A DNA stretch of 12,111 nucleotides from a virus, in UHGV virus genome UHGV-0179104; one strand, given 5' to 3'. The first letter of the stretch is position 1. Every line of letters starts with the position of its first letter. The position numbers and the translations under genes are program-made. Below are positions 4,497 to 5,831 of the stretch, in pieces. Under the pieces are notes generated by a model. The model had not been told where the DNA came from and did not search any database. It saw only the letters and a program-made list of their open reading frames with translations.

Positions 4497-5095
4497 GCAA
4501 CCTCACTTCTGCTGTTTCGCAGTTTTTTAAGTTTCTGTTGATACTCCGCCTTGATGGCCCTGCACTCTTCGACAGTCCAGCGATAGCGGTTATGGTTTGA
4601 TTCGATTTCCTCTACTGCTTCCTGCCCGATGCGGCTAATCAGTTCGACGCGATACGGAACGAGATTTCCGCTTTTGTGCTGGTTGCACACCACGCATTGC
4701 TTGTGAATATTGCGTTCATCAAATCGGAGTTGAGGTGCCGCAGCAGTTGTCCGGTAATGTCCGGCATCCCACTGAGCAGACGTGAGTGTTCCGCACGAGA
4801 TACATGGTAAGTCGCGGTCTCTTTCTCTGATGAAGGCGTTTACGGCTTGTTGGGCTTGTTTAATCCAGTAACTGCGGGGCTTTAAGGCGAGTTTTCGAAT
4901 CTTAAGTTTATCTTTCTGTTTCTGATCCTCTCGTCGTCGTTTCTTCTCTGCTGCTTTTTCCGCTTTTTCGCGTTCTTTACTTCGTCGTTCGAGTGCTATC
5001 TTGGTTCCACAAATCTCATTACACCAATATTGATTTTGATATTTTGGTATAAACCATTCATTGCAACATTTACATTTCCTTCGATAGATTCGCAT
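4493..5095 (-). CDS. ninG: NinG / Rap recombination-associated protein
   Basis: From ATG 5093-5095 ([15 protein letters not shown]...) the product is co-linear with lambda NinG: Cys-rich N-terminal region, [42 protein letters not shown] Shine-Dalgarno 5 nt upstream. The track ORF start at 5155 is a TTG and is probably not used. Confidence 0.85.
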
Positions 5096-5636
5096 AAGTG
5101 CTCCTTTCGTTGCCGGAAAAATCACCGTAATACTTATCTCGGGCTTCTTCAGCAACTAGTACCGCTAACTCCAGATCATCAAAGCATCCGAAGTGTTTAC
5201 TCTTGCCATGGAATCCTAGCCTAACATTCCATTTTTTCTGTCGTTTGTGCCAAGTAACCCCTCTGCAACCTGATTTGCTATTCTTTCGGATCCTTATATT
5301 TCTTGAATTTTCTATTGGCAGGCATTCTCTTAAATTTTCTGGCCTATTGTCGGTCCTAATTCCATTAACGTGGTCAATTTGACCAGCAGGCCAACGATTA
5401 TGAGTTATGTAAAAAACTAAGACGTGAGTTTTATATCTACGCCCATCTATCATGATCATTGAATAACCGTTGGAATCAAAAGTTCCAGCAACACTATTTA
5501 ATGCTATCCTTCCCTGAGTGGGAACTTTCCATCTAAATACCCCGGTAGATTTATCGAAACTTAGTAACTCAAATATCCTTTTAACAGTTAAATCTTCTCT
5601 TTTACGGTTACATCGTCTTCGCGCTGGTTTAGCCAT
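5070..5636 (-). CDS. HNH/AP2-type homing-endonuclease-like protein, fused to the first 9 codons of ninG
   Basis: ATG at 5634-5636 with GGAGGA Shine-Dalgarno. Product begins MAKPARRRC (the lambda NinG N-terminus), then a NUMOD-like segment (GVFRWKV), an HNH_3-like motif ([23 protein letters not shown]) and a C-terminal AP2-like DNA-binding domain ([27 protein letters not shown]). AT-rich codon usage unlike the flanking phage genes. Confidence 0.75.
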
Positions 5637-5831
5637 CGCCTTCTTCCTCCGTAATGGTTTTCTGAATTTGGCCACCTGAACAGAGCTCACCAAAGCTATG
5701 GATGTCGGTATTTCCACAATACCAAGATGGCGAAAATAACTGCATGATAAGCCTCAGGGAAAAGGGAAGACACTACCCCCGATAATTCAGAAACAAATCG
5801 AAATACATGAACTAAAGAAAAAAATCACAAC

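Follow-up and report, generated by a model that had tools for sequence, protein, structure and literature searches.

A probable homing endonuclease gene that begins on the start codon of ninG in lambdoid prophages

The free-standing endonucleases SegF, SegG and MobE of phage T4 move by 'intronless homing', with co-conversion or marker exclusion, and donor flanks are carried over with the nuclease gene. Here we describe a gene that shares several of these features in the UHGV virus genome UHGV-0179104, of which a window of 12,111 nt (the whole stretch of DNA analyzed) carries part of a lambdoid prophage. The gene encodes an HNH nuclease with an AP2-like domain, begins on the start codon of the recombination gene ninG and is followed by a second, complete ninG. 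We think it probable that this is a functional, or recently functional, free-standing HNH_3 + AP2 homing endonuclease gene (HEG) placed 29 nt inside ninG. As for the T4 seg and mob genes, a nuclease gene without intron or intein adjoins a conserved gene or lies within it, carrier alleles have an altered sequence at the presumed target and donor flank is carried along. However, the Seg proteins are GIY-YIG enzymes, and the seg and mob genes have starts of their own and lie between other genes, whereas at ninG the donor flank has a fixed boundary and is part of the mobile unit, which we refer to as the cassette.

The combination of HNH and AP2 is an established homing endonuclease architecture in phages, cyanobacteria and protists (PMC10448857, citing Magnani et al. 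2004). Members of this family, such as 'IPA-HNH' of the vibriophage ICP1 and the proteins of T5-like and Jersey-like phages, have the same N-terminal HNH_3-type and C-terminal AP2 domains and are encoded by small (~160-190 aa) free-standing genes beside or within conserved phage genes. The cassette gene differs from them in being at most 47% identical to the other sequenced members, in residing in temperate lambdoid prophages rather than the lytic lineages usually considered, and in using the start codon of the host gene with none of its own. I-HmuI, the HNH nicking endonuclease of Bacillus phage SPO1 (1u3e), is the best match to the nuclease half of our structural model, but the predicted similarity is weak (E 0.012, 18% identity), and I-HmuI is intron-encoded and has other DNA-binding modules, whereas no intron was detected at the cassette. 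In the P22-like phage epsilon34, also of lambdoid type, an HNH HEG likewise forms an in-frame fusion with the N-terminal part of a resident gene (PMC2629481), although this fusion is in the ea region, involves another HNH lineage and was not reported to have a restored downstream copy of the interrupted gene. Further examples of HEGs inside coding sequences without intron or intein, with host function apparently kept, are the hidden out-of-frame HNH in the methylase gene of the actinophage 'ShiLan' (PMC11855218) and the HEG-split nrdD of FelixO1-like phages (PMC4837284). These correspond to a tolerated in-frame insertion or a split into two polypeptides, whereas at our locus a second start and a replacement 5´ end keep ninG whole. 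Within the searchable literature, we found no paper that describes this HNH gene, its location in ninG or how the two are related. We regard the locus as a well-documented further case of a known kind, of modest novelty, whose neat part is the captured start together with the supplied 5´ end and its ribosome-binding site.

The maximal open reading frame (ORF) extends from a GTG at 5717 to 5070 and encodes 215 aa in the ORF listing. An earlier note on this DNA had taken these limits for the gene; its end and its identification as an HNH gene stood, but the biologically sensible start is the ATG at 5636-5634. This ATG is the start in RefSeq E. coli records (567-nt coding sequence). A phage RefSeq record has a GTG start 39 nt upstream, which is unavailable where ninF lies upstream, and the in-frame GTG extension to 5717 is not conserved next to ninF. 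From the ribosome-binding region (GAGGAAGAAG) through the first 29 nt of the ORF (ATGGCTAAACCAGCGCGAAGACGATGTAA), at ~5649-5608, the DNA matches lambda, with 29/29 nt from the ATG identical and the last lambda-homologous base on the left at 5608. The ORF thus begins, as the note had recognized, with the Shine-Dalgarno (SD) sequence and N-terminus (MAKPARRRC) of lambda NinG. The captured 29 nt were invariant in 56 loci with the HNH gene (HNH+) and in 81 without it (HNH-).

Homologues of the nuclease align with the query from residues 12-16 on. They start 2-7 residues ahead of where L16 lies and stop shortly past residue ~176, which leaves extra stretches of ~10-12 residues at the N-terminus and ~11-14 at the C-terminus. 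The N-terminal extra is the captured ninG start, with its first nine codons joined in frame to the nuclease, and the C-terminal extra is the ribosome-binding site and first codons of the new ninG read out of frame. No other in-frame ATG, GTG or TTG is present near the native N-terminus. Together with the lack of the N-terminal extra in the family, this suggests that translation depends on the captured ninG ATG and SD, and agrees with the proposal in the note that the intruder uses the initiation signals of its host gene.

The right-hand limit of the cassette was equally sharp. In 81 HNH- loci, the lambda-type ninG ATG was 93 nt from a shared anchor, TGTGGAACC, as against 625 nt in 59 HNH+ loci; therefore, 596 nt replace 64 nt of lambda ninG. 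The exceptions were one HNH+ locus with 624 nt, due to a frameshift, and one interrupted by an insertion sequence (IS). The junctions were identical in ~60 IMG/VR loci, and the GC content was 39.1% for the HNH part and 28.6% for the ninG 5´ end within the cassette compared to ~49% for the flanks. The stop codon of the HNH ORF, a TAA formed out of frame from the ninG codons TGT AAA, overlaps the new ninG start by 26 nt, as the earlier note had estimated, and the lambda-type copy of the ninG start stops right after the homologous TGT AA. Also as described there, the first codons of the new ninG, 28 by our alignment, are AT-rich and diverged: 53/94 aligned nt (56%) are identical to lambda, and the GC content is lower than in the corresponding part of lambda (50.5%) or in the ninG body (48.6%), where lambda homology resumes with TGTGGAACCAAG. 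NinG as a whole shares 89% identity with its lambda counterpart, most differences falling within the first ~30 residues, and was full length (200 or 203 aa) in 54/61 HNH+ loci.

The diverged N-terminus, MRIYRRKC, has the CxxC spacing of P22-type NinG, which argues that it is not a synonymous recoding, and it looks like a natural NinG variant. The MAKPARRRC fragment is a duplicate of the NinG N-terminus that is present again as MRIYRRKC; the two starts are related only as diverged homologues (19/29 nt). The HNH body is therefore bracketed by two diverged ninG starts, of which the upstream copy would drive the nuclease and the downstream copy NinG. A search for flanking nucleotide repeats or a target-site duplication gave only short matches at chance level. 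An intron or intein was considered and rejected: no Rfam family matched either strand of 4400-6200 at E <=1, the Pfam scan detected no intein family, and the ORF ends in a stop codon while ninG has an SD and ATG of its own.

The HNH-plus-AP2 architecture proposed in the earlier note was upheld for the nuclease by a Pfam score well above the cut-off, while for AP2 the profile match (22.2 bits, E 1.8e-4, profile positions 2-53 of 54) did not reach the cut-off of 33.3 bits and other evidence was drawn upon. Residues D88, H89, N101 and N110 are invariant in an alignment of 15 family members. From 15 homologues, AlphaFold2 gave a model with a predicted local distance difference test (pLDDT) score of 87.8 and low confidence at both ends. 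Its nuclease core is predicted to form a beta-beta-alpha fold (strands 86-89 and 102-105, helix 107-113), and its AP2 region, mostly with pLDDT >90, three strands (127-130, 135-142 and 145-152) and a helix (155-173). The AP2 assignment is backed by this modeled three-stranded sheet and helix (127-173) as well as by Foldseek matches to the AP2 domains 7wq5, 7et5 and 1gcc (root mean square deviation 1.3 A over 51 aa, TM score 0.67 on the target) at E 0.03-0.1, several of which are plant AP2/ERF domains. I-HmuI was the top PDB match (probability 1.00 over 109 columns). The protein also matched the PHROG family phrog_99, 'HNH endonuclease' (E 1.4e-71), and some homologues carry a precomputed PF00847 match. 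The nearest relatives, at 40-44% identity, are annotated HNH homing endonucleases of Jersey-like and T5-like phages. The gene encodes an HNH plus AP2-like nuclease, a type for which the usual annotation is free-standing phage homing endonuclease. It is already called 'HNH endonuclease' in RefSeq, in hundreds of E. coli genomes, and 'HNH endonuclease' followed by 'NinG' is the correct annotation. The coordinates of the cassette and of its surroundings are collected in the table.

Table. Features of the window discussed in the text, with coordinates numbered from its first letter.
Feature	Coordinates	Strand	Basis or remarks
HNH-AP2 endonuclease ORF, 188 aa	5636-5070	-	ATG 5636-5634, stop TAA 5072-5070
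Ribosome-binding region of lambda-type ninG, now serving the HNH ORF	5650..5640	-	GGAGG 5650-5646; GAGGAAGAAG as in lambda
Captured ninG start, ATG + 26 nt (MAKPARRRC + AA)	5636..5608	-	alignment to lambda
Cassette, 596 nt: HNH body, SD2 and diverged ninG 5´ end	5607..5012	-	in place of codons 10-31 (64 nt) of lambda ninG
HNH_3 nuclease domain, aa 68-107	5435..5316	-	Pfam PF13392, 42.7 bits, cut-off 24.8
AP2-like DNA-binding domain, aa 123-171	5270..5124	-	Pfam PF00847 sub-threshold, model and Foldseek
SD2 (AAGGAG), inside 3´ end of HNH ORF	5106..5101	-	5 nt before new ninG ATG
HNH ORF/ninG overlap, 26 nt	5095..5070	-	ninG ATG 5095-5093; HNH stop 5072-5070
Diverged ninG 5´ end, 28 codons	5095..5012	-	AT-rich; Cys pattern kept; three codons shorter than lambda
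ninG (Rap) ORF, 200 aa, intact	5095..4493	-	Pfam NinG PF05766, 280.8 bits, profile positions 5-192 of 193
Lambda-like ninG body	5011..4493	-	lambda homology resumes at 5011
O	11736-10837	-	ORF listing and profile scan
P	10840-10139	-	ORF listing and profile scan
ren	10142-9852	-	ORF listing and profile scan
ninB	9035-8625	-	ORF listing and profile scan
ninE	8628-8446	-	ORF listing and profile scan
ninF remnant, 16 N-terminal codons	~8449-8402, within ORF 8491-8294	-	rest of ninF gone
590-aa ORF inside AT-rich insert	6170-7942	+	no Pfam match; PHROG phrog_9230, unknown function
NinI-type phosphatase	4496-3831	-	downstream of ninG
Q	3834-3211	-	after NinI-type phosphatase; lysis genes follow

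The cassette was found in 537 of 5426 complete E. coli genomes, mostly enterohaemorrhagic E. coli (EHEC). The diverged ninG 5´ end was present in 538 E. coli genomes, all of which also have the HNH gene; the sole apparent exception was due to an IS1203 insertion. HNH-less lambda-type ninG is the common state, both among phage records, where 422 have ninG homology and 4 cover the HNH gene, and in IMG/VR, where >590 loci encode close NinG relatives and 60 have the HNH gene; lambda, HK544, 434, 21 and others are HNH-less. Two Stx1 phages, AU6Stx1 and SH2026Stx1, have the arrangement. The earlier note had assigned the insertion to a ninF-ninG junction. This is the position in a Salmonella Infantis prophage, where the same protein is encoded between intact ninF and ninG, and in ETEC1718, where the order is the fully lambda-like ninE-ninF-HNH-ninG-ninH-ninI-Q, but in our window only 16 codons of ninF remain.

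A donor was sought by several routes. Among 5.8 billion clustered proteins there were no HNH relatives of 47-99% identity, and species-representative genomes gave one match only, 39% identical, in a metagenome-assembled genome of the Planctomycetota. The diverged NinG N-terminus was found without the HNH gene in none of the E. coli genomes, phage records or protein searches. Only the 4 HNH+ phage records matched it at 100%, the next being 58-60% identical; the 5.8 billion proteins yielded E. coli fragments alone, and other NinG N-termini among 1.84 billion representatives were at most 65% identical. The GC content of the cassette and the gap in relatedness between 47 and 99% identity support a foreign origin.

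Sequence diversity was compared across 56-57 HNH+ loci. The E. coli 27_141091 locus was left out; in this locus (L005 1235-2448), IS1203 is inserted in the HNH/ninG overlap. Another HNH+ locus, L013 (IMG/VR 2880361019_000002), in which ninG diverges completely ~170 nt past the cassette and is truncated to 111 aa through decay, was omitted solely from the test of linkage of single-nucleotide polymorphisms (SNPs) to the cassette. It was retained for the nucleotide diversity (pi) of the ninG body, which it inflates. Decay was also noted for L063, in which a single-base deletion frameshifts the HNH ORF. Pi was 0.0043 for the HNH body, 0.0061 for the diverged ninG 5´ end and 0.046 for the ninG body (including L013), and the cassette was 7-30 times less diverged than the adjoining ~500 nt of ninG body. 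In one pairwise example, there were 2/596 differences in the cassette and 57/519 in the next 519 nt (Fisher p 1e-17), while Salmonella differed from the window by 4/596 and 27/519, respectively (p 3e-6).

The backgrounds of this uniform cassette were varied. There were 36 ninG-body haplotypes in 57 HNH+ loci, two of them identical to HNH- alleles, and many HNH+ ninG bodies were closer to HNH-less alleles than to other HNH+ loci. We counted at least 25 upstream contexts, comprising the type with an AT-rich insert and numerous ninF alleles preceded by various genes, and at least four different genes downstream. The HNH ORF was intact in 59/59 loci with standard spacing, and its polymorphisms (11 synonymous, 12 non-synonymous; pN/pS 0.29, binomial p 0.004) indicate that it is under purifying selection.

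Several properties of the locus are those of a HEG. The cassette is present or absent at one precise site in otherwise homologous genomes. At this site 64 nt of lambda ninG are replaced by a 56%-identical stretch, as self-immunity of the carrier allele requires, and the replaced stretch may be the actual target of the nuclease. Horizontal spread is seen in the near-identical cassette on divergent backgrounds in E. coli and Salmonella, although general recombination could do likewise. Purifying selection, intact ORFs and a cassette younger than its flanks favor a recently moving element, whose movement may be nuclease-driven.

We therefore weighed homing against the possibility that the cassette is a passive or retired insert, which arrived once, by homing or illegitimate recombination, no longer cuts or never cut lambda-type ninG, and was spread by ordinary recombination and by clonal expansion of EHEC. 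Several observations count for this explanation or against homing. SNPs 8, 32 and 56 nt from the right boundary occur at similar frequencies in HNH+ and HNH- haplotypes, and linkage shows no decay with distance from the cassette, so that there is no co-conversion gradient. The flanking SNPs being unlinked from the cassette means that linkage to the background has been erased, and this test does not separate homing from general recombination. Lambdoid phages recombine freely, lambdoid mosaicism alone can put a neutral insert on many backgrounds, and a recently imported non-cutting insert shuffled by homologous recombination would also appear as a cassette of low diversity in diverse flanks. The earlier note had suggested looking for the same HNH gene at other loci; protein and genome searches placed it at a single locus, with no sister copies and no donor lineage. 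Many copies are in defective prophages, for instance in O157:H7 beside an IS30 remnant, and part of the abundance is thus clonal inheritance rather than spread. In addition, a few alleles are altered at family-invariant residues (P83T, N101S) or frameshifted. Also against homing, the AP2 match is under the Pfam cut-off, every Foldseek E-value is >0.001 (about 0.01-0.1), and cleavage, homing and the target site are all things we infer from sequence. Nevertheless, a retired insert does not readily account for the ORF intact in all standard loci with its low pN/pS, for major alleles that keep the catalytic residues, or for the low divergence of the cassette relative to the adjoining 500 nt, which implies that very different backgrounds, including Salmonella, were reached recently. 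We consider the passive insert a serious but clearly less probable explanation than homing.

A second alternative, which we hold to be improbable, is that the nuclease has been domesticated and benefits the phage, by damaging competing lambdoid phages or satellites with uninterrupted ninG or through DNA processing, with the copying of its own gene incidental. Purifying selection on the ORF is compatible with this, as is the position in the early operon with recombination genes (from which expression would follow), and HEG domains have been co-opted in conflicts between phages and satellites (PMC10448857). Such a role is hard to tell from homing, however, since the cutting of rival alleles is the homing mechanism itself, with marker exclusion as a by-product. 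No defense-type partner genes adjoin the cassette. Moreover, position and architecture are unlike those of terminase-associated HNH proteins, of which HK97 gp74 is the type.

Finally, an ancestral layout, in which the HNH gene and MRIYRRKC-ninG are original and loss of the HNH gene gave rise to lambda-type ninG, has nothing in its favor beyond formal possibility; we reject it for practical purposes, as HNH-less ninG is far more common in phage records and IMG/VR, in other NinG lineages (P22, ES18 and H-19B types) the Cys-rich N-terminus comes right at the start, the GC content of the cassette is foreign and its diversity almost nil, and the HNH family normally has no MAKPARRRC extension. The layout documented here is thus derived, and the ancestral alternative that the earlier note had named as fatal to its view found no footing.

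Returning to the homing element, which we favor, the simplest account of its history, together with its likely action, would be as follows. In one founding insertion, an HNH-AP2 gene together with the start of a foreign, AT-rich ninG would have entered a lambda-type ninG, the left junction being an in-frame fusion to the resident ninG start and the right junction the product of homeologous crossing-over where the first long stretch of identity begins. Most likely, the diverged ninG 5´ end is what remains of the ninG gene of this AT-rich donor, fixed at the founding and then inherited with the cassette. The right boundary is at 5011 in all loci, which points to a single founding event rather than ongoing variable co-conversion. 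The earlier note had read the locus as homing with co-conversion of flanking sequence; the pattern is indeed that of a mobile cassette, but given the fixed boundary and the unlinked SNPs 8-56 nt away, co-conversion could be retained only as this one event. The 596-nt cassette would then have spread repeatedly to other lambdoid backgrounds through recombination in the flanks. During lytic growth, the nin-region transcript would be translated into the nuclease at the old ninG start and into NinG at the new one. The enzyme would nick or cut HNH-less lambda-type ninG, in or near the replaced 64 bp, in co-infecting or co-induced lambdoid genomes, and repair from the HNH+ genome would copy the cassette, using homology in ninF and the ninG start on the left and in the ninG body on the right. 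The HNH+ allele would itself be immune because its target segment has been replaced by the 56%-identical sequence.

The window is part of a lambdoid prophage with its early-right operon on the minus strand. The nearest public matches over the region were EHEC prophages, for example that of E. coli E2865, and the Stx1-converting phages AU6Stx1 and SH2026Stx1. An AT-rich insert of ~2.6-2.7 kb (GC 34%, ~8400-5654) separates the ninF remnant from the HNH gene. This insert, which has replaced most of ninF in the window, is unrelated to the cassette. Its junction with the HNH gene was the same in 245 complete E. coli genomes, and no copy of the insert without the HNH gene was found among the matches listed. 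Upstream of the HNH gene, at ~5800-5870, there is a short AAATAG-type tandem repeat with homopolymer T/A runs; it lies on the promoter side of the 590-aa ORF, and the run lengths vary among related loci. The upstream region also differs in O157:H7 F6294 (L148 2698-3438), a degraded prophage in which the sequence preceding the HNH gene is cut short by the IS30 remnant. Downstream, the prophage has no ninH, and the NinI-type phosphatase gene begins within the end of ninG, overlapping its stop (4493-4496); ninH or another gene fills this position in other HNH+ loci. Downstream of Q, at 2216-2973 on the minus strand, a membrane-protein gene that is a single 247-aa coding sequence in E. coli E2865 (L004 9763-10506) has been split by a frameshift into ORFs of 172 and 80 aa, each matching one half of phrog_1521.

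HEGs have been studied mostly in lytic phages (T4, SPO1, T5 and ICP1), and the cassette is a well-delimited one in temperate lambdoid prophages, carried by about a tenth of complete E. coli genomes, mostly EHEC, as well as by Stx1-converting phages. Its host gene is a recombination gene, and ~1 kb further downstream is the gene for the Q antiterminator, which controls late and stx expression. In AU6Stx1 (L001 4126-7668), the order is HNH-ninG-ninH-Q-stx1AB, and the distance from the HNH stop to the stx1A start downstream is ~1.7 kb; recombination induced by a break at ninG would thus take place near the toxin genes. An active enzyme would introduce breaks, and so recombination, in a sequence-specific way where Stx-phage mosaicism matters, and would offer a simple lambda-based system for intronless homing. 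A more speculative possibility, which we think rather unlikely, is that the cassette is an actively homing element whose double-strand breaks at ninG stimulate exchange of the ninH/ninI-Q-late-promoter module among co-induced prophages, forming the edge of a 'HEG-island' that shuffles Q and stx in EHEC. The locus illustrates clearly how, in nature, a selfish gene can insert into a coding sequence and leave the host gene whole, through capture of the start and replacement of the 5´ end. Should active homing and Q/stx shuffling prove true, this would be a distinct way for a HEG to reside inside a coding sequence, in which the start of the host gene is taken over and a recoded 5´ end is brought in with a ribosome-binding site of its own.

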